Below are positions 20,680 through 62,014 of a stretch of 64,000 nucleotides of DNA, in pieces. How positions within the stretch are numbered: position 1 is the first letter of the stretch; every line of letters starts with the position of its first letter. The notes under the pieces were generated by a model, which worked only from the letters and a program-made list of their open reading frames with translations, had not been told where the DNA came from and did no database searches. The DNA lies in IMG/VR virus record IMGVR_UViG_3300032038_000062, positions 1 to 64,000 of that record, one strand, 5' to 3'. The position numbers and the translations under genes are program-made. The DNA comes from a virus.

Positions 20680-20760
20680 ATTTCCTTTCTTAACTTTTCT
20701 ATATATATTATATCAAAAAAAATATAAAAAATCAAATTAAAAAGCCCTCTCGTAAGTAAG
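20680..20760 (-). promoter_or_regulatory. Conserved minus-strand promoter TTGATT-N17-TGaTATAAT with leader ATATATAGAAAAGTTAAGAAAGG; rho-independent terminator hairpin (AAGCCCTCTCGTAAGTAAGAGGGCTT) at 20729-20758
   Basis: Reverse complement of 20686-20737 reads TTGATTTTTTATATTTTTTTTGATATAATATATATAGAAAAGTTAAGAAAGGAA then ATG. Confidence 0.65.
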
Positions 20761-20770
20761 AGGGCTTCTT

Positions 20771-21634
20771 TTACACATACTTGTCCAAGCCGAATTCCTT
20801 CATAATCTTCTCGATATTGAAGTTATTTTGCATACAATCCTCAAGGGTAATGTAAACGCTATTTTCATCGAGAATTTTGTTCTCTACCACATACTGATGA
20901 AGTTCATCGTGACTCAATTTTTTCATTATATCCGTACCGTAACCAAAACTATAACCATAGTCAGTTAAATTAGGAAGAGTTTCAAGATACTTAAATCCAA
21001 TTCTACGCTCCCAAGAAGCGTTACAAAGAGGAAAAGTAACTCGCTTCAAATCAAGCGGCTCTCGCCAATTCTTAACATCAACTGTACAGAACACATTTTC
21101 TTTACTTTGAGTTGCTGAATAGAGAAATGCTTTAACCGCAACTCGAATACCAGAAAGTTCAAGACGATTAATTATAGAACAAATTGCAATTCCGCCTTTT
21201 ACAAAATCTTGGGCATCTGTACCGCAACAACTATTATTAGCATAACCAATAGTAAGAACACGGTTCTTTCTCATTACTTGGTCACGAGTCATCATAGAAT
21301 TGGGAAGACCAAGAATAGCATTGGGAACACAAGGAGCAAAACCAACAATTCCAGTTTTCATACCGCCCGCATTGACCTTTAAATCCTTATTATTCCTTAC
21401 AACACCGCGGTCAATATCTTTAATTGGACCCTCCCAGCCCTTTTCAAGGAGATTAAATGCTTCTTCAAGACTTTGAGTTCCAGTCCAACTAGTATCACTT
21501 TTTCCAGAAGAGTGCTCGTCCGACATAGCCTTATTATTTTGCGTACGTTTTCCAAGAGTTTGGACAAGATTACGTACGCCAGAAAAGTGCTCAAATAACA
21601 ACTTACTCTTTGTTACTTCACTATAATCTCCCAA
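20771..21634 (-). CDS. Hypothetical protein, downstream partner of the AAA+ ATPase
   Basis: 287-aa ORF 12 nt after the ATPase gene. No clear MIDAS motif. Confidence 0.5.
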   Translation of the reverse strand: MGDYSEVTKSKLLFEHFSGVRNLVQTLGKRTQNNKAMSDEHSSGKSDTSWTGTQSLEEAFNLLEKGWEGPIKDIDRGVVRNNKDLKVNAGGMKTGIVGFAPCVPNAILGLPNSMMTRDQVMRKNRVLTIGYANNSCCGTDAQDFVKGGIAICSIINRLELSGIRVAVKAFLYSATQSKENVFCTVDVKNWREPLDLKRVTFPLCNASWERRIGFKYLETLPNLTDYGYSFGYGTDIMKKLSHDELHQYVVENKILDENSVYITLEDCMQNNFNIEKIMKEFGLDKYV

Positions 21635-21646
21635 TCTAAAACCTCC

Positions 21647-22852
21647 TTAAATACAAGTTTTTAGAGCCTTATAATATTTATTGCTCTTATACTCCATATC
21701 GTTTGCGATGATGTTACGGTCATCAGTAGACAAGCCCTTCAAGAGAGAGATATTAAGAACAGTCTTAATATCCATAGTACCTTCGAGCTTAGCAATGCGC
21801 TCAATCGCACGATAGGTTGCAAGGTGATGGATATGTGCCTTTTGTACTGCCTTACGGAAATCGTGGATAAAGGTAATCAACTCGTTGTTGCCATTTGCAA
21901 CAGCTTCCTCAATCTTAGGAGAATAGTCAATCTCCATCAAGGCATACCGGTCAAGAGAAGCGGCGTCAAGCTGATAACGACCGGTATACTCAATATCGGC
22001 GCCAGTACCGTAAGTGTTACCCGCAGCGATTACTCGGAAATCTTCGTGCGCAGTAACCTGACCAGTAGGAAAGTCAAAGTAACCGTTTGCGATTGCCGCA
22101 TTCAAGATAATAAGAACTTCGGGAATAGAACCGTCCATCTCGTCGAGGAAGAACAAGCCGCCATCTTTAAAAGCCTTATAAAAGGCAGTTTCGTGGTAAT
22201 GACCGTTAGCGTCGATAAAACCAGTCAACTTATACTCCTGAGTTACAGCGTTGGTAAAATAGAAGTTCAAACCTAAACCAGCGGCTACTTGCTGTGCAAG
22301 TACGTTCTTACCAGTGCCAGCGGGCCCCGCCAAGAAAACGGGAATTGCGGCAGAAACAAGAGTGAGTACGTCATCAAACTTCTCGTGGGTTACGCCAGTA
22401 ATCTTATTAATTGCATTGGGAGTAACAATTTCATGGCGCTGAGGAAGAAAACCAAACTCGTCAATGAGTCTTTTACGAACTACAGGGTAAACTTCCTTAA
22501 AGATAGACTCAGTAGAAGCCTCCGCAACAGTCTTGAAGAATAGCTCTTCCAACTTGCCACCAAGACCACTGCTTTCTCCACCGGCGGGCACAGTAACACC
22601 AGACATAGGAACTCCATCATAGTTATGACGCATCTTTTCAAGAGCCTTTTCCGCAGCGTTCTTATGGAAAGCCGCACGCTCAATTACAGGAGCGGGCAAA
22701 CCTTTTCTACCAGCTTCAATGCTGTTAAACTTATTACGAGGGTCGTAGTAGTGTCCCTGAAAAAGCAAGTAAAGATTCTTGCCGCCCTTTGCGAACTCCT
22801 CAGTATCAATTACATAGGTAATATTATCTTTTGCATAAACTACAGTAAACAT
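21647..22852 (-). CDS. MoxR / CbbQ / CobS-like AAA+ ATPase (AAA_5 type)
   Basis: Walker A LAGPAGTGKN, Walker B LFFLDEMD, sensor region. About 170-aa N-terminal extension of unknown function. Confidence 0.7.
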   Translation of the reverse strand: MFTVVYAKDNITYVIDTEEFAKGGKNLYLLFQGHYYDPRNKFNSIEAGRKGLPAPVIERAAFHKNAAEKALEKMRHNYDGVPMSGVTVPAGGESSGLGGKLEELFFKTVAEASTESIFKEVYPVVRKRLIDEFGFLPQRHEIVTPNAINKITGVTHEKFDDVLTLVSAAIPVFLAGPAGTGKNVLAQQVAAGLGLNFYFTNAVTQEYKLTGFIDANGHYHETAFYKAFKDGGLFFLDEMDGSIPEVLIILNAAIANGYFDFPTGQVTAHEDFRVIAAGNTYGTGADIEYTGRYQLDAASLDRYALMEIDYSPKIEEAVANGNNELITFIHDFRKAVQKAHIHHLATYRAIERIAKLEGTMDIKTVLNISLLKGLSTDDRNIIANDMEYKSNKYYKALKTCI

Positions 22853-22981
22853 ATGTATTATCTTCTCCTTTCAGTATAGCCTTTTTATTTATTGCTTTCT
22901 TAACTTTTCTATATATATTATAACAGAAAAAATATAAAAAGTCAATATGTTATATTGCTTTTTTAATAAAAAGGCGGGAAA

Positions 22982-24925: not shown

Positions 24926-25034
24926 ATCATATTCTCCTTTATTTTCTATATATATTATATCAAAAAAAACGTATAAAATCAAATAAATAAATAAGGAGTT
25001 AGATGACTAACTCCTTACTTTAATATATTATCGC

Positions 25035-25835
25035 TTACTTTGAATCAATATCACCAATATCTACGATAGTGCCACCGTCCGTAGAAACCTTTGGCAACTG
25101 ACCATTCCACTTCTCGATTTCTTTATTCTTAATTACCTTATCTGTCAACGAATCGTTCAAAAGTTTATTTGCTTCGGCGTCACCTTCAGCTTTAATTTTT
25201 GCTGCTTCTGCCTCAGCCTGTGCATTTGTAATAGCGGTCTGCTTCTCAGTTTCAGCCTTCAAGAGTTGTTGCTGGGCAACCTGCTTCTCTTCAATCGCAT
25301 TAATGAAGGCATCTGAGAAATCAAAATCAACAATATTAACATCAGTAATATATAGACCAATCTCATTCAGCTTTTCATTAAGTCCAGTAACAAGTCCCTC
25401 AGAAATCAAAATACGATTAGTCACGCTCTGCTCAGCAGTATATTCCGATACAATAGCCTTTAGCACTTCATTTACTGCGGGCACAACAAGTACATTTTCA
25501 TAGTCCGCACCAATGTTCTTGAAGATACTATAACTCTTTGCACTGTCTACTCGATAGTTAATTGCCAATACCGTACTGACACTTTGAAGGTCTTTTGAGA
25601 ATGCTTCGGTATTAACTTCTAGCTTCTGAATACGGTTATCAATGTCTTCTACTGACTGCACAAAGGGCGCCTTAAAGTGGATACCCTCTGAGAGAACACC
25701 TTCCTGTACACTGCCCATCGTAACTACGACGCCAGTATGACCGGGACTTACAATCGTAAAACAGTTGAACAGAACGATGATTGCGGCAATCGCAATGACT
25801 CCAATAACAATAACTCGCTTAATCAATTTCTCCAT
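25035..25835 (-). CDS. SPFH / Band-7 (prohibitin, HflC-like) membrane protein
   Basis: N-terminal TM then an SPFH-like region (GHTGVVVTMG...) and a C-terminal coiled coil (QQLLKAETEKQTAITNAQAEAEAAKIKAEGDAEA). Confidence 0.7.
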   Translation of the reverse strand: MEKLIKRVIVIGVIAIAAIIVLFNCFTIVSPGHTGVVVTMGSVQEGVLSEGIHFKAPFVQSVEDIDNRIQKLEVNTEAFSKDLQSVSTVLAINYRVDSAKSYSIFKNIGADYENVLVVPAVNEVLKAIVSEYTAEQSVTNRILISEGLVTGLNEKLNEIGLYITDVNIVDFDFSDAFINAIEEKQVAQQQLLKAETEKQTAITNAQAEAEAAKIKAEGDAEANKLLNDSLTDKVIKNKEIEKWNGQLPKVSTDGGTIVDIGDIDSK

Positions 25836-26532: not shown

Positions 26533-26751
26533 ATTTATTTCCCTTTCTTAACTTTTCTATAATTATTATATCAAAAATATATAAAAAAGTCAAAAAGAAA
26601 AGGTTATCTTTTTAGTAAGATAACTAGTTTCTTTAAATATCTAACAATCCATTAATAAACAATAACAAAATTAATATAATAAACATACTAAGCCCAATCG
26701 TCTTCCATTAAAGTTCCACCGTTTTCTTCGAGCACTTTCTCTAATAACTCA

Positions 26752-28035
26752 TTACGGAAAGATTCCTGCATCTCTTCTGTATCCTCGCTTATATTCGTGG
26801 GGAAAGACAACTTCACCAATTCCATAGATATGATTCCTCCAAGAACTTACTATTAAAGCCACACTATATAATACTAAAGCAACGCAAAATACAACTTCAT
26901 AATTAAGTCCATTTTGTAATATAATTGCAGTAGTATTATTACCAGTTAATCCAGCAATAGCCCAAGCACTAAGCGCCAGTCCGTGGATTTCACTTACTTT
27001 TGAAAGTCCAAAATACTCTGTTAATAAGGCTGGTAATGTACTAAAACCGCCACCATAGCCAGCATTAACAACCAAAAGTAAAAGAACAATTATAAATGGT
27101 AGTATAGCTGAACTTCTAAATATAAGTGTAGAAATCAGCATAAAGATACAGCTAATAAAGATAATTTGATAAATTGTTTTTCTCGTTTTACAATGGTCAG
27201 ACAAGGTTGAGTAACCGATTCTGCCGCCAGCGTTAAATAAAGCAGTAATCATTGGAATTATAGCAGTCGCCGCAGCTAATCCAGTTAGATAAATATTGAT
27301 AATTTGTGTTTCATAGCTTATCAACATTAAACCACAATGGATATTAATAAAGAAGATAAGCCAAATTCTTCTAAAGTACCTATTCTTAAACATACTCAAA
27401 GAAAACTTTGGTATTTCTTTACTTTCAACCCAATCAATCGGTTTCTCTAATAAGAAATGACCGGTCATCATTATAATAAAATAAAAACCGCCTAAAATCA
27501 AGAACATTATCCAAATTCCAAACTGTGCGAGCAGCCAAGTCATAATGGGTGTGGCTATGGCTTTAGCTAAACCAAAACCAGCAATAGAAATGCCTGTTGC
27601 TAAACCCTTATTATCTTTAAACCATAGCATTAATGTTTTAACTGGTGAAAGATAACCTATTCCTAGTCCTATTCCCATTAATACACCATAGGATAAGTAA
27701 ATTCCTATAAGTGCTGGAATACCTTTTAATAATAGAATTGATAAACCAGTTCCTATCATACCACCGCTAAAGCATATTGCGGCGACAAGAGAAGATTTAT
27801 GAACATCTCTCTCAACATATCGTCCTCCAAAAGCCGCGGACATTCCCAAAAAGAAAATTGCTATTGAGAAAGCCCAGCCAACTGCAAATGGAGAAAGATT
27901 AACGTATTGCGCTATTTGGTCTTTAAAAGTAGACCAACAATATACTGTTCCTATTGAGCAGTGGATTAATAATGCTGGTATCGCGCCATTTAATATTTTA
28001 TTCCGTGTCATTATTCCTCCTTTATTCATATTCAT
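26752..28035 (-). CDS. MFS-type transporter (12 TM, OFA-like)
   Basis: 427-aa polytopic protein with MFS-like hydropathy periodicity. Confidence 0.65.
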   Translation of the reverse strand: MNMNKGGIMTRNKILNGAIPALLIHCSIGTVYCWSTFKDQIAQYVNLSPFAVGWAFSIAIFFLGMSAAFGGRYVERDVHKSSLVAAICFSGGMIGTGLSILLLKGIPALIGIYLSYGVLMGIGLGIGYLSPVKTLMLWFKDNKGLATGISIAGFGLAKAIATPIMTWLLAQFGIWIMFLILGGFYFIIMMTGHFLLEKPIDWVESKEIPKFSLSMFKNRYFRRIWLIFFINIHCGLMLISYETQIINIYLTGLAAATAIIPMITALFNAGGRIGYSTLSDHCKTRKTIYQIIFISCIFMLISTLIFRSSAILPFIIVLLLLVVNAGYGGGFSTLPALLTEYFGLSKVSEIHGLALSAWAIAGLTGNNTTAIILQNGLNYEVVFCVALVLYSVALIVSSWRNHIYGIGEVVFPHEYKRGYRRDAGIFP

Positions 28036-31183: not shown

Positions 31184-31278
31184 TTCCTCCCTATTATTCT
31201 ATATATATTATACTAAAAAATATATAAAAAGTCAAAAAAAAAGAGTAGCCATTACAGCTACTCCTTTCTAAAAGTGCC

Positions 31279-47403: not shown

Positions 47404-47480
47404 GCTAGAAAGATGGAGCAAGTAGCCGGATTCGAACCGACGTCCCCAGTATGGCGCACTAGAATTCTAAACAAACTAAA
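47404..47480 (-). tRNA. tRNA with non-canonical anticodon loop (GCGCCAT); identity undetermined
   Basis: Good acceptor and T-arm (GTCGG TTCGAAT CCGGC) and CCA; anticodon loop lacks U33. Confidence 0.45.
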
Positions 47481-47483
47481 CTA

Positions 47484-47558
47484 TACCTGCATATGGAGCC
47501 GAATCACCGTTATGCTCGGAGGTCAAGAGGTTACAAATCTCCCGTTTTACTGATTAAA
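47484..47558 (-). tRNA. tRNA-like, possibly Thr (TGT), with non-canonical T-loop
   Basis: Perfect acceptor GCCGAAT/ATTCGGC plus CCA; D-stem GTTT/AAAC; loop TTTGTAA. Confidence 0.4.
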
Positions 47559-48411: not shown

Positions 48412-48500
48412 TGGTACCGGTCACCAGACTCGAACTGGTACGCCTATTAACTAGGCTACGGATTTTAAGTCCGCTATGTCTTCCATTCCATCACACCGGC
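48412..48500 (-). tRNA. tRNA-Leu (anticodon TAA), type II
   Basis: Loop CTTAAAA; T-loop TTCGAGT. Confidence 0.6.
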
Positions 48501-48771
48501 ATTTATATTAAGGATTCGAGCGCTTTACTAAGAAGAAAGTCGCGCGGCTTTTGATAACGCAGAGCCGCCAAACTGCTAGCAAAGAGAATTTATCTTAAAA
48601 AAGTTATTACCCCGTTAGCGCCGAGAGGGCGGTCTTTTTAATGAAAGGAGTGACAGATAGAAACCGATTGCCGCCCTCTCGTTCAACGAATTAACTTTAA
48701 ATCTCTTAACTTTCTATATATATTATAGCAAAATTATTTATTTTTTGCAAATTTTTTATTGCTATATTATC

Positions 48772-48918: not shown

Positions 48919-48985
48919 TTTTATACCGCCTTTCTTAACTTTTCTATATATATTATATATGGTTTTTATAAAAAAATCAAAAAAA

Positions 48986-50537: not shown

Positions 50538-53500
50538 TTATGTATTAGAGGTTTTACGACCGATACACAGGCCGAAAGCCACACCATTGCTATTGTAAGC
50601 ATTGGAACTGTGGCTGTTACCGTCGTCAATCACAAGACGGAAGTACGACGTGTTAATATCTGGTGTTCTTAACCACCACCAGTTACCATTTCCAGTTTCA
50701 ACTACGCCTCTTGCGTACTTAATTTTCTTATTTATGAAATAAGTACAAGCTTTTACTGGAGCAATATTGCTCCAAAGTTCTTTATTCCAAACAACACGAT
50801 TTTGTGAGCCAAATACATCAACAATAGAAAGTAAGAATAAATTATCTTTAGAACAAACCATATCATCGGTAGATAATGTTCCATTACCAGAACTTGCCCA
50901 CACATTAACAGTAGAAATCATAACACGAAGTTTAAATGGTAAATATCCCCATACAGTTGTATTTAACCAACTTCTCATTTCTGATTTATCCCAACCACCA
51001 ACATTATTAGAAGGATTCATTCTATGATTGGTTAAAGTATTATGAGCCACAAATAAGAAATTCGCAGCCTTTCCTGGCTCATCAGCTAATTCATATCTTA
51101 AAATTTCTGCAATATCAAAATCTAATTGTTTAATATTGTCATAAGCTGCTGTACCATCAGATTTACAAATATCTACAGCAATTCTACTTTTACCTATTTG
51201 GTAATATTGTTGTATCGTTGCATCTTCTGGGTCACTCATCATAATAGCATAAAATTCTTCTGGAGTATATAAAATTTTATCGTTTGTCACAGAAGTAGTA
51301 TTATTATTTGTACCTGGAATATAGCATAAATAATTATTAATTCCTGCATCAGCAGCTGTCCAGTCAACTTCTTTAAGTTGTGGTAAAGTACAAGAAGTAA
51401 ATACAGCAACAGCTTTTACATTTTCGTGTACATTTTCAATCGTATTTTCATTAGCAGTAGCAGAAGTATTACCACCACCATCTTTTGACAACTCCCAATG
51501 GTCAAATAAATAGTGAATTGCAGAAGTTCCGCTACCAGTACTTTCTTTAACTGGGAAAGCACTTAAATCAGTTCTATTATTACCATAAGTAGCAGTATAA
51601 TCATTACCTGTATACTTACTTACCTCTTGTTCATCTACCAAACTATTATTAACATAGAACTTTACTTTATATTGGTTGTAAACTTCTCCTGCAACTATAT
51701 TAAGATTTGGATACGCTCTATTTAATTCTCCCTTAAAGGTATCACCTATTTTATTAATAGTTATAGTACCAGTAATCTCTGGGTAATTATTGTGGTTAGA
51801 ATCAATAGTATCATCGCTCTTTAATCGCTTAGTCTTTAAACTAGAATCTAATAAAGTGCTAAGTAAATCATTTTCATCATCACCTAAAGCAACATTTATA
51901 TTAATAAGTCTAACACCCGTTAAACGACTTAAATTATTCTTTAATATCTCAAGAACTGGAATACCACTAGTATTTTCAATTCTTAATCTCTTTACATTTG
52001 AATAATCATCGTCTTCTATTGAATAATCATTAATAGTACCTTGGTCAATTAATTTTAAGAAAGTAATTGCTTTGGGAAGATGTAATGTTTCCAATCTCGC
52101 GCCAGCGGGTAAAGTAACTCCACTGAACGAACTGCCAGCTGCGTAAATGTGCTTAATAGCAGCGTTTTGAGACAAGTCTAGAATCTCAGCATTACCACTT
52201 AATAAACCACCAACATTTAAAGTTTCAAGAAGTTTAAGACTTTGAATTTGTGAAATTAAAGCAGATAAACTTAAATTACTATTTTCTTGTTCTGCTTCGT
52301 TACCATAAATAAAAGTGCTTAAATTAGGCGCCTTTTCTAAATTTAAGGTTTGTGGATTACACCCACTCATATTTAAGGTTTTTAAACAACTTGCTCCGAA
52401 AATATAAATATCATCATTACCAGATGCATTTGTATAAAAATACATAGTAGATGGATTATTTTCTCTAAATAATACTGGAACAGAAGAGTTATTCGGATAT
52501 ACCAAAGAACCACTATCACTATTACCATATATAATAGCTGGATAAAAGTCCTGTAAACCAGTTATTGAAATAGTATGTTCACCTGCAGTTGGTCTAAAGA
52601 ATATTCTATCGGTTTTAAAAGCTGTTGCGGCATATTTAGAATCATAAAGATTCGCTCTTCTACGCATCCAATTTTCTTTTTGGAATCTACGGTCAGTTTG
52701 CAATCTTTTATAATCGCCAGTTGTTTTTCCTTCGGTAATTTTAGTTGTTCCATCTGGATTTGTAACAATCTCTGTATATGGCTTTGTCCAAGCGTCATCG
52801 TATTTATAACCCATATCACGGTTAACAAGGGCTTCTACTAATGTATTAAGACCTTCTGTTAAATGCACACGCTTGAAATTCTCAAATGTAAGTCCTTTAC
52901 TAGCTAAAATTTGATAAGCCTCTTTTATTTCAGCCTGGAAGCTATCTTCAAACATAAGCCATAAAGGTGAATCCCAACCGTTATATCCATGTTGACCATC
53001 ATCAGGAATAATATAATCCCAATCTGCATTATAAGGTATTTTTAATTTACCAACATTCTCAGCACCAAAAGCGCTATCTAAATCGTATAAATCAATATAC
53101 CAAATACCAAAAGTAGAATTTGTCCAATCTATATTATTAATATTAACAGTACCATCATTATTTAATATTGCTGGAGTGTGTTCCGTTATAGAAGTTATTG
53201 TATTTCCAAGGTAATCTTTAACATTTACGCCCGCAGCTAATAATTCATTACCTTTATATCTATCTTTTAAGTTTTCACAGCGTAAAAACATATTTTTGGC
53301 TCTATTATCTACCAGTCCAGTAAACTGTAAAAAGCAATAATAAACAAGCGCATGATTCATATTAAAATGCTTTGTAAATTCTGCTTTAAAAATGGCTTTT
53401 CTATAATCTTTTTCTGTCGTATAAGTTACGCCATTATAGGTGTACGTACCAGCTTCTGTACTAGCTGTCCAATAATTAGCTCTTTGACATACCCAACTAA

Positions 53501-56500
53501 ATAAATATTGAATATAATCATATTTTGGTGATAAATTTTCCTTTTTTAAATCATCCTGGTCTGGATAACTACATTCTAGCGCGCCTTTAACTAAATAATC
53601 TCCATTACCATCATCAACTAATAAATGGTCAGATTTAAATTTACAAATATCTGTTGTGTTATTTAAAAATTCCCATCTCTGAGTCGCGGTATCATTACCT
53701 TCATCATTGCTATCTTCAAGTCCAAAACTCTTGCTATTACCTTTATCATTATTTAACATACCTACACCGGCGAAAGTAATTGTAGAGGTTTCTCCATTCG
53801 CACTTAATGTTTCAAAAAATAATAAACAAGGAAAACCATAAACGGTATTTTGATATCTTTCATCTATTTGTTGGCTTGGCGTTTTATCGGTAAATAAACC
53901 ATTCGCAATGTTAGCATTAAAAGTATTAGCATGGTCTATTGACATATAGTCAATTTTAAAACATAATGTGCTTTCTGGAATTGAAGCGCAATCTATTTCT
54001 TCTTTACTAGAATCATACACAAATTCTGATACTCCATCTGGATTTGTTGTGGTGTATCCCTTGAGCGGCCATTTTACTTTTTTAATTCCATTCGCAAATC
54101 TTCTTAAATATATTTTTAAATTTTTTCTAATATATTGTTGTGAACTTGTACCTTGAACTTTATTGTAGCAACAAAAACGACCAATATCTTTATTTGTATA
54201 ACCTATTTCACTTGTCCAATTTGGATTTTCATCATTTAAATCTAATACTCTAGTAAAGCCATCATTATTATCGGCTGGAAAAGTTAAAGTTATTCCAGCA
54301 TATCTAACTCCTTCATCGCTTTTTATCGGTGAAATAAAATTACTCTGATTCTCATATCCTTTTAATTTTAATACCCTATATCTTTTAATAGCTTCATTAT
54401 AAGAAACATCATTATTAGCTAAAATGTCATTTCTTTTAGCAAGATTTTCTCGTTGTTCAAGAGTATCTTTTGAAGCAATATAATTCTGCAACACTTCTGT
54501 TGCTGATAATTCTTTACCATAGATTTTAACATTATATAAATCTACAACTGCTTTATTACTACCTATAGTAATATATTGCGGTACTGCTAATGTATCACTA
54601 CTATTATATGGTACACTACTACCATAGATACCATTAATATATATATTAACAGCTTGTTTATTTTCACCGTGGGAATTTAATTTTTCAAGAACAAAACTTA
54701 ATCTTATTCTTTGCCCTTTTTGTACATATGCCGCTGAAGCACTTTCTTCAAATGTAATAAAACCATCTTTAATATCACCAGATTGCAATAAATCAGTTTT
54801 AAAGCCACAAGTTAAAGGAGTAACTTTTATACCAACAAAATCCTCACTTTCATCTGTTGTATCTGGAATTACTGAATCGGGAGCATTTGCACAACTAATA
54901 ATAACAGCACTATCATCAGAACTTGCTTCAACCTTATAATCAATTTCAATGGTACGTCCATTATCAAAAATAGATGGATTTTCCATATTATCAATAATTA
55001 TATTATTACCTTTTTCATCGGTAAAATTAGTAGTAAAAGGCTTAAATTGAATTTCTGTTCGCGCGCTTCCGCTTAATCTTAATACTCTTCTATTTTCATT
55101 TAAAGTATTTAATTGAATAAAGCCATTACCATTATCTAGCCAGTTAAAATTACTATTTCGTGTATATATTGTATAGTTATTATTAGTATATGATAATTCC
55201 TCTTTTCCTTCAGAGCTGTTGGTATATTGTGTCGGGTCTAAATCATATAATAAACCAGTTGTAATATACTTAATTTTAGCACTATATGGGCTTACAAACT
55301 GATTAACTACAGCATTAACCGTTTTAGTAATACCAGACAAGGTAAATTCAACCTTGTAAGTACCGTATTCTTTATACTCATTATAACTAAAACCAATAGT
55401 ATGAATTTGTCTTACAGATAAATCATTTTCTTCTTTTACAGCTAATTCATTATCCTCACTATCAAGTAAACGGATAACAAGCCCATCTACTATATCTCCA
55501 CCAGGCTGAACAACGCTATAAGTAATACTTAAAGTTTCTCCTTCAGTAATTGCTTCTGGCGTTTTAATACCCATTAAAGGATATTTATTTTCTTGACTTG
55601 TTGTATTTACAAAAATTACATTCTCAATTATATTAGAATATACCCCATCTTCTGTAATAAAATATGCCCTCAATGAGTGCGCACCGTAAGTATAACCCGG
55701 TAGATTAATAGTATAATTCAGTGCAATACCATCCGTAGTTCCAATATCTATTCCACCAACAGTTTGTCCGTCAACACTTCTTGTCGTTAATTCAACATCA
55801 TCCACAAATATGTGCATAATTTTTTTAATACCAGCACCATGCGGAGTATATTGTAAATCTATATAACCATTACCAGGAAAAATACTAGTAGACCAATTCT
55901 TAAAAGCATTAGTCTGTATTTCTAATGAAATTGGCACACTTCTAACTTCAAATACTAAAGTCTTTTGTGGAGTAATATCCGTTCCTTGTTGGTCTATTTG
56001 AGTCGCGCCCCTCGCAGTTACAGTAATATTCAATATTTTATTCTCTTGCAGCATCGCCGCAGTAATTGGAATCGTAATATCACCTTGCTGATAACCTTCT
56101 GTTATATTAAAAAAGGTACGATACGCACTATCACTTTCAGTAGAATATTTATATTGCGCCTTAATGTTCGGCGCGGTTGTAGTTTGTTCATAACCAGATA
56201 TTGTACTTTGTAATTCTTCATAGTGAACAACTAAATTCGTTGATCTTCCAGATGCGGTAGTAAAATTCGTAGATTTACCAGAATTATTATAGAATGTTAA
56301 AACCGTTTGTCCAATAGATGTTCCACCCTCTGGTAATTCAACCGCATTAGTTCCTGGAAGCTGAACACCATTGTTATCGACTAAAATAATGCTCTTTTTA
56401 TCATTAATTACTGTGCTAGATATGTTGACAAATTGTAAACCTTGTGGAGGGAGCGGCTTTGGATTACCCATAGCTTGATTTTTTCCATTAACCAGTTGAA

Positions 56501-57416
56501 CAGCATTATTTTCAATCTGTACATCCGCAACATATTTACTATCAAACTCATCTTTTGAGTAAGAATCCCCACCGACTATTACAAATTCTTCATCACTCGC
56601 AATATATCTATAATGAATATATCCATTTTCACTATCGCCAATATAATAATCTATATCTGGGTCACCATTTTGTGGTAACTCATCATCAATTATATAACTT
56701 CCACCAGATTGTGTTTTTGTGTAAGTACCAGTAGTTGTATTGACAGTTTGGATTATATAATTTTTATATTTTCCATTTTCTAATAAACTAATAGACATAC
56801 CAGCAGTAATATCACCAGCTATAATAGCATCTCTTAATGCAGCTTCTGAAGTAAACGCTGCACCACCACCAAAACTTATCTTTTTCCAAATATAATATGT
56901 CCCATTCGTACCAAAACATTCATACAAAGCATCATTTGCTTTAATAATATCGCCAGGATTACCAACAGTTGAAGTTGTAGGAACATTTCCACTGCTAGTT
57001 TTGGTATATCTATTATCTGATTCTATCTTTGAGTATGAATTGCCACTAATTATTTCATAATCATTATCAATCCAACGATAATGAATATAATTATTATTTT
57101 CTAATTTATAATAATCAGTTTTTTCATCGCCTTCTTGCGGCAAATCATCGTTCTCACCTAAAATCATATATTTTACTTTCGTATTATCATATGTATCTCT
57201 TCTTAAAATTTCGGTGTATTTTAATCCACCAGTGGCAGACGCATCTGTTTCTAAAATATAAAGTTTATATTTATTAGTGCTTAAATCAACTAATTTTACT
57301 AATTGCCCAGCCTTTGCTAGACCAGATAATCTATATGCGTCTAGTCTTTCTGATGTAGTAAAAATCAAATAATTCTCTGACACTGGTGATGTAATTATCA
57401 TATCACCCTTTACCAT
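50538..57416 (-). CDS. Giant protein (2292 aa): putative tail fiber / host-recognition protein with internal repeats and LRR-like segment
   Basis: Duplicated module DYYxxENxYIHYRxI...GxSYSK near the N-terminus. LRR-like run around LKTLNMSGCNPQTLNLEKAPNLS...LETLNVGGLLSGNAEILDLSQN. Asn/Thr-rich beta-type composition. C-terminal domain ending ...NGNWWWLRTPD...GLCIGRK. Confidence 0.6.
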   Translation of the reverse strand: MVKGDMIITSPVSENYLIFTTSERLDAYRLSGLAKAGQLVKLVDLSTNKYKLYILETDASATGGLKYTEILRRDTYDNTKVKYMILGENDDLPQEGDEKTDYYKLENNNYIHYRWIDNDYEIISGNSYSKIESDNRYTKTSSGNVPTTSTVGNPGDIIKANDALYECFGTNGTYYIWKKISFGGGAAFTSEAALRDAIIAGDITAGMSISLLENGKYKNYIIQTVNTTTGTYTKTQSGGSYIIDDELPQNGDPDIDYYIGDSENGYIHYRYIASDEEFVIVGGDSYSKDEFDSKYVADVQIENNAVQLVNGKNQAMGNPKPLPPQGLQFVNISSTVINDKKSIILVDNNGVQLPGTNAVELPEGGTSIGQTVLTFYNNSGKSTNFTTASGRSTNLVVHYEELQSTISGYEQTTTAPNIKAQYKYSTESDSAYRTFFNITEGYQQGDITIPITAAMLQENKILNITVTARGATQIDQQGTDITPQKTLVFEVRSVPISLEIQTNAFKNWSTSIFPGNGYIDLQYTPHGAGIKKIMHIFVDDVELTTRSVDGQTVGGIDIGTTDGIALNYTINLPGYTYGAHSLRAYFITEDGVYSNIIENVIFVNTTSQENKYPLMGIKTPEAITEGETLSITYSVVQPGGDIVDGLVIRLLDSEDNELAVKEENDLSVRQIHTIGFSYNEYKEYGTYKVEFTLSGITKTVNAVVNQFVSPYSAKIKYITTGLLYDLDPTQYTNSSEGKEELSYTNNNYTIYTRNSNFNWLDNGNGFIQLNTLNENRRVLRLSGSARTEIQFKPFTTNFTDEKGNNIIIDNMENPSIFDNGRTIEIDYKVEASSDDSAVIISCANAPDSVIPDTTDESEDFVGIKVTPLTCGFKTDLLQSGDIKDGFITFEESASAAYVQKGQRIRLSFVLEKLNSHGENKQAVNIYINGIYGSSVPYNSSDTLAVPQYITIGSNKAVVDLYNVKIYGKELSATEVLQNYIASKDTLEQRENLAKRNDILANNDVSYNEAIKRYRVLKLKGYENQSNFISPIKSDEGVRYAGITLTFPADNNDGFTRVLDLNDENPNWTSEIGYTNKDIGRFCCYNKVQGTSSQQYIRKNLKIYLRRFANGIKKVKWPLKGYTTTNPDGVSEFVYDSSKEEIDCASIPESTLCFKIDYMSIDHANTFNANIANGLFTDKTPSQQIDERYQNTVYGFPCLLFFETLSANGETSTITFAGVGMLNNDKGNSKSFGLEDSNDEGNDTATQRWEFLNNTTDICKFKSDHLLVDDGNGDYLVKGALECSYPDQDDLKKENLSPKYDYIQYLFSWVCQRANYWTASTEAGTYTYNGVTYTTEKDYRKAIFKAEFTKHFNMNHALVYYCFLQFTGLVDNRAKNMFLRCENLKDRYKGNELLAAGVNVKDYLGNTITSITEHTPAILNNDGTVNINNIDWTNSTFGIWYIDLYDLDSAFGAENVGKLKIPYNADWDYIIPDDGQHGYNGWDSPLWLMFEDSFQAEIKEAYQILASKGLTFENFKRVHLTEGLNTLVEALVNRDMGYKYDDAWTKPYTEIVTNPDGTTKITEGKTTGDYKRLQTDRRFQKENWMRRRANLYDSKYAATAFKTDRIFFRPTAGEHTISITGLQDFYPAIIYGNSDSGSLVYPNNSSVPVLFRENNPSTMYFYTNASGNDDIYIFGASCLKTLNMSGCNPQTLNLEKAPNLSTFIYGNEAEQENSNLSLSALISQIQSLKLLETLNVGGLLSGNAEILDLSQNAAIKHIYAAGSSFSGVTLPAGARLETLHLPKAITFLKLIDQGTINDYSIEDDDYSNVKRLRIENTSGIPVLEILKNNLSRLTGVRLININVALGDDENDLLSTLLDSSLKTKRLKSDDTIDSNHNNYPEITGTITINKIGDTFKGELNRAYPNLNIVAGEVYNQYKVKFYVNNSLVDEQEVSKYTGNDYTATYGNNRTDLSAFPVKESTGSGTSAIHYLFDHWELSKDGGGNTSATANENTIENVHENVKAVAVFTSCTLPQLKEVDWTAADAGINNYLCYIPGTNNNTTSVTNDKILYTPEEFYAIMMSDPEDATIQQYYQIGKSRIAVDICKSDGTAAYDNIKQLDFDIAEILRYELADEPGKAANFLFVAHNTLTNHRMNPSNNVGGWDKSEMRSWLNTTVWGYLPFKLRVMISTVNVWASSGNGTLSTDDMVCSKDNLFLLSIVDVFGSQNRVVWNKELWSNIAPVKACTYFINKKIKYARGVVETGNGNWWWLRTPDINTSYFRLVIDDGNSHSSNAYNSNGVAFGLCIGRKTSNT

Positions 57417-59678: not shown

Positions 59679-59679
59679 T

Positions 59680-59973: not shown

Positions 59974-59985
59974 AATTACTCCTTT

Positions 59986-60288
59986 CTATATAAGCATCTC
60001 GTCCCAAAGAGAAGCAATTTCTTCTCTCTCTTCTTCTGTGAGTGTGCATAAATCTCCCCAATTATAAATACCCTCAAATAAGCTAGAATCTAAGTTAGGA
60101 ATTTCCTCTTTATGGAAAACCGTTTTCTTTTGATTTTCTCTTGAAACATAATTAGGAATAATATACTTCTTAACAGTACTTGGCGCTGGACGTCCGCCCA
60201 TTGCTCTGCTTACACCAGCATAAGTACCAATTTGAAGATAAAGTTCATTTATTTCTATAATTTGGTCTTGGGTAATTTGACTAGCCAT
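59986..60288 (-). CDS. Hypothetical protein
   Basis: 100 aa with the conserved promoter upstream. Confidence 0.45.
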   Translation of the reverse strand: MASQITQDQIIEINELYLQIGTYAGVSRAMGGRPAPSTVKKYIIPNYVSRENQKKTVFHKEEIPNLDSSLFEGIYNWGDLCTLTEEEREEIASLWDEMLI

Positions 60289-60363
60289 TTTATAACTCCT
60301 TTCCTAACTTTCTATATATATTATAGAATAAAATTGAAAAAGAGTCAAAAATATCCGAAGATT

Positions 60364-61836
60364 TTACGCCAGAGTAACTGGCGCATATCTTTCAGACATT
60401 AACACATCTTCCATAAGTTCGATAGCAGTCTTATCAATAGAATTAATAAGTTGCTTAAAAGTAGAAGTTGCATGACCGCCAACAAGAAGAACATTCTTAT
60501 CTTTTGTCAAGAAAGTATCATTTCTACTATCAACATTCCAGAAGATTAGCTTAGGCAACTTATAACCCTTACTTTCGTAGAGCTTTTCCATTGCCGCCAC
60601 AAAATCGGTGCTGCCGCAATTATCAATCTCCATATCAGAAACGACTACAACTGCCTTTGGCATTTCTTCTGTGGATACGCCCTCTTCAATAGCTAAGCCT
60701 AAAATCTGTCTAAATACAGATTCTAAGTTAGTATTCATACCCCAATCTGCTCTTGCTACTCCTTGAAGAATAGACAAAAGAGAAGACTCTTCGGGAATTT
60801 TATGAAATCTAGGGCTAGAAGAGAAATTCATAAACAAGTTATGATATGCTCCCTTATTTCTTTGTGCAAAATAAACGGCAAGACCAAGAGCACTAGAAAT
60901 AGGCAATCTATCACAGTCAAACATCGAACCAGAAGTATCCGCAACCACAATGACATTTGATTCTGTGCCATTGAGATAATCAGGGAGCGCCTTCCACTGA
61001 GCCTCAATTACATCATCTATCATTGAGTTAATACCATAGCCGCGAATATAAGAACGGACTAAATCATAGGGATAAAGAACATCCGCCTTAATAGTTTGCT
61101 CTCCACTCTTAACCTTATTCATAAAGTCGGAAAATGCTTCTGACTTCAACTTAAAAGCATTACGATATTTCTTCATCGCATAACTGGGAACAGACTGGAA
61201 ATCAATGTCATTCCACTCTCTTGCACTCATCTTCTTCTCGACAATTTTTAAGTGAGCGCGCAACTTAGAGAGAAGTTTACGATATTCTTGTTCAGAAATA
61301 TCCCAAGCCTTACAAATTTTCTTCGCTAAGGCGCGAGTTGCTTTTGAAGAAGTATTAATAGAAGGAAGCCACTTAGCTAAAAGAGAAATGTGCGCTTTCT
61401 CTTTAAGCATACCTAGAATTAAGTTATCAGAAATGATAACTTTTCTAAGATATTCAAGTACCCCATTCTCTAAACTTGTACCAAAAAGTACATAAAGAGA
61501 ATCCCAGCGGTTATACTCTTCCACAAGGTGGAAATTCTTTCTAACAACTTCAGGATGGTTTTCTGCCAGCCATTTTAAAACCACCTTAAAAGTTCTTCTT
61601 TCTCCTAAACCACCTCTGATATCACCGCAATAAAAGGCGCACTTAGTAGCAAGTAATGGATTTTCATTAAAAGCCGCGGCAAACTTTTCAGCAATCTCAT
61701 GCTCTTGACGTGAGCGTAATGCACCACAAGTTGAGAAAAAATCTAACATAGCGCTATCAGTCGTATTATATGCTAAAGCGCCATTTTCAGTTAAAGTTTC
61801 TGTACTCTTTGTTGAAAATGCTTCTGCAAAATTCAT
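60364..61836 (-). CDS. vWA-domain protein (TROVE / DUF2828-like N-terminal region plus C-terminal von Willebrand A domain)
   Basis: MIDAS motif DTSGSM in VIVVADTSGSMFD followed by a Rossmann-like pattern; N-terminal about 280 aa alpha-helical. Confidence 0.6.
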   Translation of the reverse strand: MNFAEAFSTKSTETLTENGALAYNTTDSAMLDFFSTCGALRSRQEHEIAEKFAAAFNENPLLATKCAFYCGDIRGGLGERRTFKVVLKWLAENHPEVVRKNFHLVEEYNRWDSLYVLFGTSLENGVLEYLRKVIISDNLILGMLKEKAHISLLAKWLPSINTSSKATRALAKKICKAWDISEQEYRKLLSKLRAHLKIVEKKMSAREWNDIDFQSVPSYAMKKYRNAFKLKSEAFSDFMNKVKSGEQTIKADVLYPYDLVRSYIRGYGINSMIDDVIEAQWKALPDYLNGTESNVIVVADTSGSMFDCDRLPISSALGLAVYFAQRNKGAYHNLFMNFSSSPRFHKIPEESSLLSILQGVARADWGMNTNLESVFRQILGLAIEEGVSTEEMPKAVVVVSDMEIDNCGSTDFVAAMEKLYESKGYKLPKLIFWNVDSRNDTFLTKDKNVLLVGGHATSTFKQLINSIDKTAIELMEDVLMSERYAPVTLA

Positions 61837-62014
61837 ATCTATACACCTTTCCTTTTCTTAATTTATTTTCTATAATTATTATAGAAAAATTTTATGCTTT
61901 TTTCAATTTTTATCATAAATAAAAAATTCCCCTTTTCATTTATAATATATATTAAATAAGATATTATAACTAGTTCTCACTAAAATACAAATTTTAACTT
62001 TCTTTTCTAAAAAT

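Follow-up and report, generated by a model that had tools for sequence, protein, structure and literature searches.

In phage T4, the early 'uber' promoters combine a UP element, a -35, a TGn and a -10 with extra consensus blocks (Hinton 2010, PMC2988021). Like the class-B promoters described below, they occur as many near-perfect host-polymerase copies per genome, are conserved beyond the canonical hexamers, and are thought to out-compete host promoters. However, T4 has a Gram-negative host and its extra consensus lies mainly upstream, in the UP element and spacer, whereas the strongest extra block of class B comprises the discriminator, the start site and the first 5–14 transcribed bases. 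In T5, also a tRNA-rich lytic phage, conserved downstream blocks reportedly distinguish the expression classes (a finding attributed to Gentz and Bujard, 1985). T5 and the phage studied here both use strong sigma-70-type promoters with post-+1 sequence as part of the functional promoter, and both have promoter classes with common hexamers and different downstream homology. How polymerase escapes from T5 promoters such as PN25 is controlled by the initial transcribed sequence (PMC12464699). The T5 sequence differs (ATAAATTTGAGAGAGGAG), and its effect is biochemically shown, whereas we infer that of class B, for a Firmicute polymerase.

Bacillus subtilis phage SPO1 has a host-takeover module in which every small early gene has its own strong sigma-A promoter and its own terminator. 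The small genes of the plus-strand block at 6.1–16.7 kb of the present sequence are arranged in the same way, but SPO1 switches between classes by means of its own sigma factors (gp28, gp33/34) and different hexamers, whereas both classes here carry sigma-A hexamers. In Gram-positive bacteria, the known mRNA 5' stabilisers include STAB-SD (Agaisse and Lereclus 1996), the polypurine stabiliser of phage SP82 (Hue et al. 1995) and 5'-terminal hairpins. Like the non-coding class-B units, these place an SD-like polypurine tract or stem-loop that does not start translation at the extreme 5' end; however, the putative class-B stabiliser does not vary between units and forms one piece with the promoter. 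The promoter-early stem-loop (PeSL) cassettes of T4-type phages, reportedly characterised by Arbiol et al. in 2010, are likewise repeated promoter-plus-hairpin units at the borders of small variable genes, with a potential role in modular shuffling, but the hairpins here are ordinary non-homologous terminators and only the promoter-leader is conserved.

Architecture of the class-B module

The window, i.e., the whole 64-kb stretch analysed, comes from a large phage of low-GC Gram-positive bacteria and contains at least 16 copies of the class-B module, with leftward genes, tRNAs and small RNAs downstream. An earlier note had proposed at least 15 minus-strand copies of one conserved, host sigma-A-like promoter-plus-leader unit. 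The motif is present at 15 of the 15 positions, with the general form TTGAY-17 bp-TATAAT-ATATATAG-AAA, and heads both leftward genes and five units of the tRNA array; a sixteenth, perfect copy on the plus strand had been missed. The exact pattern TATAATNNNTATAGAA has 18 matches in the window (0.02 expected from shuffles), and a 32-mer allowing up to 3 mismatches has 4 (0.00 expected by chance). Furthermore, the strongest consensus matches of a neutral promoter scan are exactly the class-B sites.

All copies lie in the right orientation upstream of genes or RNAs. The -35 begins with TTGA in 14 of 16 copies and with TTGC in the other two, and its spacing to TATAAT is exactly 17 bp in all 16; judged by this canonical geometry, the class-B sites are housekeeping sigma-A promoters. 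The host-like hexamers of the earlier description thus stand, but the extended -10 (TGn) occurs in only 8 of the 16. Promoters of a phage-encoded RNA polymerase of the SP6/T7 type, in which the -4 to +3 region reads CACTATAGAAG, are close to refuted: their sole support is the resemblance of TATAG(+1)AA to the SP6 start region, whereas every copy has a perfect -35 at exactly 17 bp, the TATAAT hexamer occupies the stretch where a T7-type -17 to -5 specificity block would lie, and no RNA polymerase gene was detected when the large ORFs of the window, which covers 64 kb of the genome, were examined.

Under sigma-A geometry, ATATAT(A) would be discriminator and start-site DNA, with ATATAT outside the transcript; the expected +1 is the A seven bases past the -10, followed by G. 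The transcribed invariant part would therefore be AGAAA only, plus GTTAAGA (or GTTAGGA) in 11 of 16 copies. The information content is 10.0 bits for the eight bases that follow the -10 and 10.8 bits for the 16 bases beyond those, whereas the -10 hexamer, in the AT-rich background, has 7.8 bits. Conservation does exceed the need of a plain promoter, as had been claimed for some 22 nearly invariant transcribed nucleotides, but about one-third of that block is untranscribed discriminator by the start-site rules (PMC5730371). The leader is also less uniform than proposed, since five copies (24959, 31212, 35969, 36704 and 61883, named by the first base of the -10) pass directly from TATAGAA(A) to a Shine-Dalgarno leader rich in purines. 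GTTAAG itself lies 11–13 nt from the -10, a variation of 1–2 nt read from motif listings.

Conservation is position-specific, with the hexamers, the discriminator and +1 to +5 kept at 15–16 of 16, the spacer and flanks variable, and similarity stopping sharply at about +14. In six copies, the intrinsic terminator of the preceding unit lies directly upstream, its hairpin abutting the -35. This arrangement, the tandem paralogues 13148–14110 and 14780–15670 with their identical promoter cassettes, and the same core in very different phages would suit a mobile or recombining terminator-plus-promoter cassette, spread horizontally and by gene conversion under little per-base selection. Such an origin is very doubtful, because the position-specific pattern points to selection rather than recent copying; moreover, the upstream hairpins are all different, and from contig to contig an exact core is combined with upstream sequence of different types.

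Class-B units upstream of genes

On the minus strand, copy 20712 (20687–20735) combines TTGATT, TGn, TATAAT, ATATATAG and AAAAGTTAAGAAAGG; an ATG at about +26 opens a 96-aa ORF (20384–20674), and a terminator hairpin (20770–20739) lies directly upstream. Copy 22922 (22897–22945) has a 58-nt leader to an AAA+ ATPase gene (21647–22852), and copy 26570 (26545–26593) carries the AATTATAG variant, with GTTAAGAAAGGG as the Shine-Dalgarno. GTTAAGA is absent from copies 24959 (24934–24982; TATAGAAAATAAAGGAG, ATG at about +22, terminator 25020–24989 upstream), 31212 (31187–31235; TATAGAATAATAGGGAGG, terminator 31269–31237 extending into the -35) and 35969 (35944–35992; TATAGAAAATAAGGAAGGAG). Copy 36704 (36679–36727), with the AAATATAG variant, the leader AAAAAATGATAGGAG and a terminator upstream (36756–36734), is kept in the 90%-identical relative L122. 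In copy 48957 (48932–48980), GTTAAGAAAGG is followed by an ATG at about +27, and copy 60325 (60300–60348; GTTAGGAAAGGAG) lies upstream of ORF 59986–60288. The weaker copy 61883 (61858–61906; AATTATAG, -35 TTGAAA) precedes a Ro60-like gene (60364–61836), a phage Ro60 orthologue accompanied by Y-RNA-like elements. In the perfect plus-strand copy (16269–16317, -10 at 16292), the leader folds as a GAAAGT/ACTTTC hairpin and ORF 16361–16708 begins at about +57.

The transcribed leader in coding and non-coding units

The tRNA array (39753–48500, minus strand) contains 24 tRNAs (ARAGORN) and 2 further tRNA-like Rfam matches, interspersed with non-tRNA RNAs and small ORFs, and is driven by five class-B promoters. 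Copy 48727 (48702–48750; -35 TTGCAA), at the head of the array, is followed by a 215-nt structured spacer in which the leader GTTAAGAGATT forms part of the closing helix. Copy 47350 (47325–47373) has tRNA-Cys about 22 nt past the predicted start, so its leader has no coding role. Copy 45352 (45327–45375), with the variant ATATATAAAG instead of ATATATAG, precedes a 205-nt structured spacer and tRNA-Glu, its leader GAAAGTT pairing with AACTTTC. Copy 43968 (43943–43991) precedes a 119-nt non-tRNA spacer and the first tRNA, and its leader GTTAAGG pairs with CCTTAAA immediately 5' of the tRNA. Copy 42495 (42470–42518) reads into a 70-nt Y-RNA-like 'bracket' element (42463–42394) and then tRNA-Leu.

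Leaders measure 17–35 nt in 8 of 10 coding class-B units. The leader is retained in the five tRNA-array units, which have no ORF downstream, and in one coding unit with a long leader; a ribosome-binding site alone is therefore insufficient to explain its conservation, as the earlier note had implied. Folding was compared for 193 distinct GTTA-type copies from the window and related contigs. Structure is lacking in the 127 coding copies (MFE -2.8). Of the 66 non-coding copies, 41% contain, in the next 34 nt downstream of the leader, a stretch of 6 nt or more perfectly complementary to part of leader nt 1–16, against 8% in shuffles, and the MFE of these 66 is -7.0 against -3.5. The pairing register differs between copies, which identifies the leader as the fixed partner. 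In non-coding contexts of related phages, the downstream sequence has evolved to pair with the leader in a 5'-terminal helix.

The main constraint might act on the RNA, with 5' AGAAAG...AAGAAAGG serving as a ribosome-binding or standby site and a STAB-SD-like 5' stabiliser, selected for translation and protection from RNase J1-type decay. The 3' tail of Firmicute 16S rRNA reads CCUCCUUUCU, and AGAAAG and AAGAAAGGA are, by eye, complementary to it; the SD–ATG spacing is correct, non-coding units retain polypurine tracts and build 5' helices, and the SP82, aprE and gsiB stabilisers provide precedents. As the principal constraint this is nevertheless fairly unlikely: it leaves unexplained the invariant untranscribed ATATAT discriminator, the most conserved part, and in unit 47350, tRNA 5' processing removes the whole 21-nt leader. 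It is compatible with, and not exclusive of, the host-promoter explanation developed below.

Class-A promoters and the upstream palindrome

The plus strand carries 18 class-A promoters (6579–15790), roughly one per small gene, of the form TTGAC[A/T]-17-TGnTATAAT-ATA[G/A]ATA[C/A/G]...AAAGGA. After the shared hexamers they read ATAGATAC/ATAAATAC, as had been described. They form a second class, as had been suggested, which is kept in relatives, where it adjoins TerL. Two plus-strand promoters, at 6602 and 9039, have the AATTATAGAA variant. In the window, a sigma-like gene (3357–4688) lies by the packaging genes.

Confined to the plus-strand block is a palindrome, TTAGACTT-NNN-AAGTCTAA, with 22 copies (6114–16147), every one of them preceded by a terminator hairpin and closely followed by a class-A -35. 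The relative L156 has a related palindrome, TTTAGACGT-N4-ACGTCTAAA. The palindrome is a candidate operator separating class A from class B, and a better candidate for a timing switch than the +1 region. Since the classes also differ in TGn frequency and in a T-rich spacer, timing need not be set at the +1 and leader, contrary to the earlier proposal.

Distribution among phages and bacteria

In IMG/VR, more than 117 stretches of uncultured phage contigs (80–200 kb) contain the exact class-B core, with differing upstream regions and downstream genes. The cultured Enterococcus phage H1 also carries it, although only 5 detectable proteins are common to H1 and the window (TerL is 38% identical). 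In contrast, none of the 25 sigma-A-like promoters of Geobacillus virus E3, from the same terminase lineage, has the motif, all being ordinary; the module is thus a lineage trait and not a necessity of Firmicute transcription. The core is rare in bacteria (29 loci in 596 Gb of bacterial genomes), and the 12 of these loci that were scanned contain phage-type tRNA arrays.

A lineage-specific motif, in H1 but not in E3, might be expected if a phage-encoded factor, for example a protein that modifies RNA polymerase, binds sigma or binds RNA, recognised the start site, the initial transcribed region or the 5' leader as it emerges, and separated the classes in time. Both classes, unlike past the -10, are kept in relatives, and conservation exceeds the need of sigma-A (10 bits in discriminator and start; GTTAAGA retained in non-coding units). 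Precedent exists in Alt-modified polymerase, which favours some T4 early promoters via undefined positions (PMC2988021). However, the window showed no Alt-like ADP-ribosyltransferase, and Pfam, PHROGs and NCBIfam searches of the 64 kb gave no candidate regulatory factor. Such a factor is distinctly unlikely. H1 and the window phage have the motif in common yet almost no proteins, H1 has it in small-gene and long blocks alike, the GTTAAG offset floats, and many promoters in the same genomes carry other purine leaders. Furthermore, the leader is base-paired in non-coding RNAs and so not displayed as a single-stranded tag. Nothing found points to the antiterminator, sigma appropriation or leader-binding regulator that had been envisaged: the -35 is intact, the -10-like hexamers of the initial transcript (read by eye) lack the final T, and the leaders are short and unstructured in coding contexts and helix-sequestered in non-coding ones.

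A probable module optimised for the host polymerase

Each copy is probably best explained as a near-consensus sigma-A promoter to which a standard start site, a standard initial transcribed sequence and a very short leader are attached. Under this host-promoter reading, the phage need not supply any factor. The A/T discriminator ATATAT followed by T(-1) A(+1) G(+2) would give one sharp start by E. coli rules, since a start 7 bp past the -10, a pyrimidine–purine step at -1/+1 and a non-template G downstream are all present (PMC5730371). The transcript would begin with six purines, AGAAAG, free of the T's and pyrimidine–G steps that slow promoter escape, so host polymerase in its unmodified form would start from the module and clear it rapidly, letting it outcompete the promoters of the host; initial transcribed sequences are known to affect escape (PMC5961368; T5 N25, PMC12464699). 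These escape and start-site rules derive from the E. coli and not the Firmicute enzyme, and many sequences would satisfy them; the recurrence of GTTAAG in the window phage and the distant H1 is not explained by the rules, and two stable classes differing past the -10 would also be predicted by a class-specific factor.

Coding units would use GTTAAGAAAGGA or a comparable run of purines as an unstructured leader with a Shine-Dalgarno 7–10 nt before the ATG. In non-coding units, the fixed leader would form the 5' side of a 5'-terminal helix, pairing with a sequence that evolved downstream, and would double as a polypurine, SD-like tract. Both a 5' helix and an SD-like polypurine tract are known stabilisers against 5'-end-dependent decay in Firmicutes. 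The gsiB, aprE and phage SP82 RNAs are stabilised by SD-like 5' tracts (PMC7509114). Rather than clear evidence of a new regulator, the class-B module is a new example of a known habit of lytic phages, the use of "super-consensus" promoters.

Composition and copy number of the class-B module

Each of the 15 minus-strand copies claimed in the earlier note for the promoter–leader module (class B) shows TTGA(Y)T, a 17-bp T-rich spacer (TTTTTTATA), TATAAT, ATATATAG, and AAA. One further perfect copy, absent from its list, lies on the plus strand at 16292, in keeping with the count of at least 15. The window contains 18 occurrences of the string TATAATNNNTATAGAA, where dinucleotide-preserving shuffles predict 0.02. 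In a neutral consensus scan of 20–40 kb, promoter-like sites show no overall excess (75 vs. 77.5), and the top-scoring minus-strand matches are exactly the class-B sites. The AATTATAGAA variant is located at the plus-strand promoters 6602 and 9039, and likewise at 26570 and 61883.

All 16 copies share the 17-bp spacer and an exact TATAAT. The −35 begins with TTGA in 14 copies and TTGC in 2, matching TTGACA at 4–5 of the 6 positions. The 8 bases 3′ of the −10 hold 10.0 bits, compared with 7.8 bits for the −10 hexamer (A+T-rich background), and the next 16 bases after this discriminator/start block hold 10.8 bits. Conserved blocks beyond the hexamers accompany the 16 copies, as in the "uber" or super-consensus early promoters of the T4 and T5 type. 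Two features described earlier as general are partial: the extended −10 (TGn) is found in 8 of the 16 copies and is missing from the remainder, and the near-invariant leader (GTTAAGA or GTTAGGA) is found in 11 and departs from this form in the other 5. The sequence previously assigned to copy 45352 is replaced by ATATATAAAG.

Promoter type and predicted start site

By their hexamers and the invariant 17 bp between them, the class-B sites are assigned to the housekeeping sigma-A promoters. As in sigma-70/sigma-A promoters generally, a TTGACA-like −35 and a spacer of 17 ± 1 bp with TATAAT are situated upstream of, and read into, a gene or RNA. A promoter for a single-subunit polymerase of the T7/SP6 type, an approximately 23-bp block from −17 to +6 without −35 or −10, was considered and set aside, as class B has the −35/−10 structure; no phage RNA polymerase gene was found among the ORFs of the 64-kb window.

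Start-site selection favours a position 7 bp downstream of the −10, a pyrimidine-to-purine step from −1 to +1 on the non-template strand, and G as the next non-template base after the start (PMC5730371). In TATAAT-ATATAT-A-G, positions 6, 7, and 8 are T, A, and G, and all three preferences converge on the same A; hence, ATATAT would be discriminator DNA rather than transcript, and the class-B RNA is predicted to start AGAAA(A)GUUAAGA. Of the 22 transcribed nucleotides proposed in the earlier note, the downstream portion stands as predicted transcript and ATATAT does not. The NAD-capping promoter consensus is HRRASWW; speculatively, the class-B start resembles it in the downstream half (A+1 G+2 A+3 A+4), and the upstream half does not match (T at −1).

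The host sigma-A holoenzyme would recognize the class-B promoter with every known element near its optimum. The A/T discriminator and the T-A-G start would impose a single fixed start, and the first six transcribed bases, all purine, may confer a kinetic benefit. In large-scale assays in E. coli, slow-escaping initial transcribed sequences carry T's in the first ~7 nt and pyrimidine-G pause steps near +5/+6, and G at +2 gives fast escape on one of three promoters tested (PMC5961368). The T5 N25 promoter is the classical case in which the initial transcribed region sets productive output (PMC12464699). Further downstream, the purine run in the transcript would provide either an unstructured leader with a Shine–Dalgarno sequence or the 5′ arm of a protective helix, with a possible stabilizing role.

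The same strategy is seen in the T4 early "uber" promoters, whose extra consensus blocks are thought to optimize contact with the host polymerase (PMC2988021), and the class-B module is best filed with the known super-consensus phage promoters for host RNA polymerase. The module stands out by its unusually conserved discriminator, start site, and initial transcript, and its leader serves a second purpose as the 5′ arm of a helix. A literature search found no account of transcription in Enterococcus phage H1, Geobacillus virus E3, or their relatives, no expression data for the window phage or H1, and nothing relevant for the motif strings.

The leader in coding and non-coding units

A Shine–Dalgarno sequence and a start codon follow 10 of the 16 class-B copies within 17–58 nt, the leader measuring 17–35 nt in eight and 57–58 nt in two; in the GTTAAGAAAGG copies, GTTAAGAAAGG is itself the Shine–Dalgarno. 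One copy reads through a hairpin leader into an ORF. The remaining five (42495, 43968, 45352, 47350, and 48727) are situated in the tRNA array and lead into RNAs, without an ORF. At 47350, tRNA-Cys begins approximately 22 nt past the predicted start, so that the entire leader would be discarded by 5′ processing. The earlier note had named ribosome-binding-site constraint, as a sufficient explanation of leader conservation, as part of the grounds for abandoning its reading; the five copies without an ORF, and the leader lost at 47350, bear out that the ribosome-binding site is not the sole reason. GAAAGUUAA resembles the T7 gene-10 "epsilon" enhancer, and this comparison was dropped, as the phage sequence is the reverse complement of the enhancer and is therefore identical, not complementary, to 16S rRNA.

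The window and related loci together supply 193 distinct GTTA-type copies for a comparison of leader pairing, 127 running into a start codon and 66 non-coding. The coding copies are unstructured, with a mean MFE of −2.8 over the first 50 nt, equal to that of downstream-shuffled sequences, and a complement to the leader of at least 6 nt occurs in 6% of them vs. 4.5% in shuffles. Among the non-coding copies, 41% can pair leader nt 1–16 perfectly, over 6 nt or more, with sequence in the next 34 nt, vs. 8% in shuffles, and the MFE is −7.0 vs. −3.5. The pairing register varies between copies, including GAAAGT/ACTTTC, GTTAAGAGAGCG/CGCTCTCTTAA, and GTTAAGGAAG/CTTCCTTAAC. In the window, the leader forms the helix GAAAGT/ACTTTC at 16292 (plus strand) and GAAAGTT/AACTTTC at 45352 (minus strand); at 43968 (minus strand), GTTAAGG pairs with CCTTAAA directly before the first tRNA, and at 48727 (minus strand), the helix GTTAAGAGATT/GAATCCTTAAT closes a 215-nt structured RNA.

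These copy-to-copy differences in register indicate that the leader is the fixed partner, to which the downstream sequence has adapted, and hence that the constancy of the leader has a cause other than pairing with its RNA partner. The simplest such cause is its role as initial transcribed DNA, and evolution then used the leader for a 5′-terminal helix. Both 5′ helices and Shine–Dalgarno-like 5′ polypurine tracts are established RNA stabilizers in Gram-positive bacteria, including in an early RNA of Bacillus phage SP82 (PMC7509114). The non-coding units carry the features of such STAB-SD or 5′-terminal hairpin elements, namely a polypurine tract or stem-loop near the 5′ end without a start codon, and may lengthen RNA half-life.

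RNAs of the tRNA array and a Ro60-type protein

The array (39.7–48.5 kb, minus strand) holds 24–26 tRNAs, and a recurrent RNA element is found in the DNA that separates class-B promoters from the first tRNA after them. It opens with a 5′ arm (A/T)AGNNNC, continues with an invariant (T/C)ACAGCAA and a variable 35–160 nt core, and closes with a complementary 3′ arm followed by G. The element is widespread in phage tRNA arrays, including those of many IMG/VR loci. The fetched loci contain 67 distinct copies, three of them in H1 and three in the window (42463–42394, 47968–47871, and ~43061–42854, minus strand), where a TGCAGCAA variant is also located near 48190 (minus strand). A complement to the arm lies downstream in 67 of the 164 distinct YACAGCAA sites vs. 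19 in the control, and the 62 different arm 7-mers among the copies amount to strong covariation. No Rfam family matches the non-tRNA spacers of the array or the elements.

The long versions contain a tRNA-like module ordered as T-arm, closed acceptor-like stem, and D-arm. Alternatively, the elements may be circularly permuted tRNA genes. Bacterial YrlA-type Y RNAs possess the same tRNA-like architecture and carry the Ro60-binding motif GNCGAA near the 5′ end (PMC4201824), and the ACAGCAA of the element is similarly placed. The array elements are probable Y RNAs.

A putative partner is the 490-aa ORF at 60364–61836 (minus strand), with class-B copy 61883 upstream, which contains DUF2828 and DUF7788 and matches PHROG 850 "RNA-binding protein". 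Its homologues, more than 8000 in metagenomes, have a DTSGSM-type MIDAS motif; it is one of the five proteins common to the window phage and H1, and it is found in 14 motif-bearing loci. The model reaches a pLDDT of 85.7 with a 36-sequence alignment (AF2) and 38 from the single sequence (AlphaFold). Each of the model's 12 best PDB matches is a full-length Ro60/TROVE protein, and the Ro60 of Thermus phage phiLo is among them (for the 12, E = 9e-8 to 2e-5; TM 0.47–0.57). By its predicted fold, the 490-aa protein is a Ro60/TROVE orthologue and, together with the Y-RNA-like elements, this suggests that the phage carries a Ro60 orthologue and probable Y RNAs.

Other RNAs are situated in the array as well. 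A "skipping-rope" RNA (Rfam RF02924; 56.5 bits vs. a gathering score of 36.7) lies between two tRNAs at 44432–44512 (minus strand). At 43764–43837 (minus strand), the tRNA called by ARAGORN has gtca as a four-base anticodon and an eight-base loop, and two tRNA-like Rfam matches at 47497–47568 and 42548–42615 (both minus strand) are absent from the ARAGORN calls.

The plus-strand promoters and the palindrome

The second, plus-strand promoter class recognized in the earlier note (class A, 18 promoters with the same hexamers and another +1 region) is conserved in terminase-anchored relatives, whose TerL is 50–72% identical. Class-A continuations adjoin TerL in these relatives (ATAAATGT 27 times, also ATAACTGT and ATAGATAC), and ATATATAG-type promoters are located at the far end of the same block.

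A palindrome, TTAGACTT-NNN-AAGTCTAA, occurs 22 times in the plus-strand block at 6.1–16.1 kb (6114–16147) vs. 1.3 expected, and nowhere else in the window save for a weak match with two mismatches at 45494. Every copy comes after the terminator hairpin of a small gene and before the −35 of the class-A promoter that follows. The arms are constant, unlike the loop; imperfect copies break the pairing, without compensation. In a relative (L156), TTTAGACGT-N4-ACGTCTAAA occupies the same place. The palindrome looks like an operator for a dimeric protein, and the early ORFs 8233–8616 and 11691–12116 give weak winged-helix signals, below the Pfam cut-offs. Furthermore, TGn is present in 14 of 18 class-A promoters vs. 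8 of 16 in class B, and the T-rich spacer is absent from class A. Given the palindrome and the differences in TGn and spacer, temporal separation of the classes, if any, could be set by an operator rather than at +1.

In the same block, the tandem paralogues 13148–14110 and 14780–15670 (plus strand), both PHROG 20187, are related to an "exodeoxyribonuclease" of H1. They are preceded by identical palindrome-plus-promoter cassettes (14156–14210 and 15719–15773), which suggests duplication by recombination between cassettes.

The phage and the distribution of the module

The window has a G+C content of 34%, and strong GGAGG-type ribosome-binding sites on its genes indicate a large phage of a low-GC Gram-positive host. 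No close relative is found among GenBank phages by megablast of the tRNA region. The nearest cultured terminases to its large terminase (TerL, 87–1910, minus strand) are those of Geobacillus virus E3 (41%), Alicyclobacillus phage KKP_3916 (39%), and Enterococcus phage H1 (38%), followed by SPbeta-like phages. H1 (138 kb) is laid out like the window, with packaging genes on one strand, a small-gene block on the other, and then a long block with a tRNA array. Only five proteins common to both phages are detectable by tblastn, and the promoter–leader is therefore better conserved than almost all proteins.

The leftward block carries as unusual cargo an MFS transporter (26752–28035), an SPFH/Band-7 protein (25035–25835), and an AAA+ (MoxR/dynein-like) ATPase (21647–22852) adjoining a DUF7192 protein (20771–21634), all on the minus strand. 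An RlaP-like nucleotidyltransferase (33023–33817) and two metallophosphoesterases suggest an RNA-repair theme. A 2292-aa ORF (50538–57416, minus strand) has DUF6273 at its C-terminus, and its phage relatives are limited to hypothetical proteins, from Bacteroides phages and from a faecal phage (22–25% identity). Where the gene blocks converge and the cumulative GC skew turns lies a non-coding zone of approximately 1 kb (16720–17760), dense in TATTATAA runs, 10-nt CTTATACC-type repeats, and repeated units of ~75 nt, which is a candidate replication origin or genome-end region.

The 24-mer TATAATATATATAGAAAGTTAAGA occurs exactly in more than 117 IMG/VR contig stretches among the matches listed, most of these being 80–200 kb contigs from rumen- and gut-type samples. 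The sequence upstream of it is TTGATTTTTTATAAAAA in some contigs and a TGGAAATATCTGGTAGGC box with TTGACTTTT in others, and the downstream genes vary too. In bacteria and archaea, at one genome per species (596 Gb), it is found in only 29 stretches, mostly 130–180 kb MAG contigs, and the 12 of these loci that were scanned carry phage-style tRNA arrays. One of the loci, near a group I intron, is in the isolate genome of Massiliimalia massiliensis. This rarity and the tRNA arrays lead to rejection of the motif as a copied host rRNA/tRNA promoter and assign it to phages.

Other promoters on the motif-bearing contigs, not chosen for the motif, most commonly continue TATAAT with ATATATAG, then with TATTATAG, ATTTATAG, and AATTATAG; after TATAG, they read AAAGTTAAG(G/A), AAAATGAGAA, AAAATAAAGA, and AAAATCAGAA. 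Common to all is TATAAT-NNN-TATAG-AAA and then a purine-rich run, of which GTTAAG is the most frequent version and not the sole one. In the whole genome of H1, nnn(n)TATA(G/A) follows 17 of 54 TTGN-17-TATAAT sites vs. 14 of 304 other TATAAT sites, and A(0-4)GTTA(A/G) comes next in 12 of the 17. Typical H1 sequences are TATAAT-TAATTATA-AAGTTAAATAAGGAGG and, in the small-gene block, TATAAT-AATTATAG-AAAGTTAAGGAGGG; the motif stands before tRNAs as well. Geobacillus virus E3 has the motif at 0 of 25 sites, which marks the module as a sub-lineage trait and not as general to Firmicute phage promoters.

In the small-gene block of H1 (~42,800–49,100 of L148, the fetched H1 stretch; 92.8–99.1 kb of the record), the −35 TTGACA is located in the loop of the terminator hairpin of the upstream gene, e.g., AAAAGGGG-TTGACA-ACCCCTTTT, so that terminator and promoter physically overlap. 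Terminator hairpins adjoin 6 of the 16 class-B copies in the window and are not homologous to one another. In the only close relative, at 90% identity, the orthologous promoters are too similar to show breakpoints of a PeSL-like mobile cassette.

A phage factor as an alternative

The earlier note proposed that a phage factor, such as a sigma appropriator or an antiterminator, reads the class-B start region or the 5′ tag. Sigma appropriation is opposed by the canonical −35, which is kept at 17 bp in all class-B copies; in the T4 MotA/AsiA middle promoters, by contrast, the −35 is replaced by an activator box at −30. Antitermination of the lambda-Q type is disfavoured as well, the initial transcript lacking a −10-like TAnnnT: in the consensus AGAAAGTTAAGA, TTAAGA and TAAGAA, compared by eye, have no T at position 6. 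Moreover, the lambda-Q type employs one late promoter and a long terminator-containing operon, whereas the 16 class-B copies stand on short terminator-bounded units. For antitermination of the N/nut or put type, the unstructured coding leaders of 17–35 nt are too short, with neither the boxB hairpin nor the two put stem-loops of those systems.

Two observations favour a phage factor, namely the evolutionary stability of both promoter classes and the lineage specificity of the module. Against it, the distance between the −10 and GTTAAG changes by one or two bases among copies, other purine leaders occur on many promoters of the same genomes, and the window has no recognizable transcription factor save for a PHROG "sigma factor" match. 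Comparison of ~50 window ORFs with Pfam, PHROGs, and NCBIfam yields nothing in its support and only three leads: that match (3357–4688), the sub-threshold winged-helix signals at 8233–8616 and 11691–12116, and the AAA+ ATPase. The first is a 443-aa ORF (minus strand; PHROG 5767, 4e-14) with a zinc-ribbon-like C-terminal part and its own sigma-A-like promoter at 4728 (minus strand). It adjoins the packaging genes, a position shared by GP4, the annotated sigma factor of Geobacillus virus E3, and is more likely a late-gene factor, possibly the late-gene sigma; PDB sequence searches of this ORF and of a 594-aa ORF are empty. Overall, it is improbable that a factor peculiar to this phage lineage reads a regulon marked by the invariant start region and the 5′ AGAAAGUUAAGA tag. 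Such a factor might modify host RNA polymerase and prefer the ATATATAG start, or it might be a protein recognizing the 5′ tag to favour phage RNAs during host RNA shut-off. If this were true, two sigma-A classes separated in time at the start-site level would constitute an undescribed mode of phage temporal control.

Implications

If the reading as a super-consensus promoter for host RNA polymerase is right, its value is mostly practical. The 50-nt signature TTGAY-T5-6ATA...TATAAT-NNNTATAG-AAA[A]GTTAAG would mark transcription units and predicted RNA 5′ ends, and would be usable across a large, almost unstudied group, the 80–200 kb tRNA-rich phages of gut and rumen Firmicutes. The module would also serve as a compact, portable, and probably very strong promoter–leader for low-GC Gram-positive hosts, and H1 is a cultured member in which the question is testable. 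The discriminator, start site, and first transcribed bases outrank the −10 in conservation across phages with almost no common proteins, a natural case for studying what share of a Firmicute promoter sits downstream of the −10.
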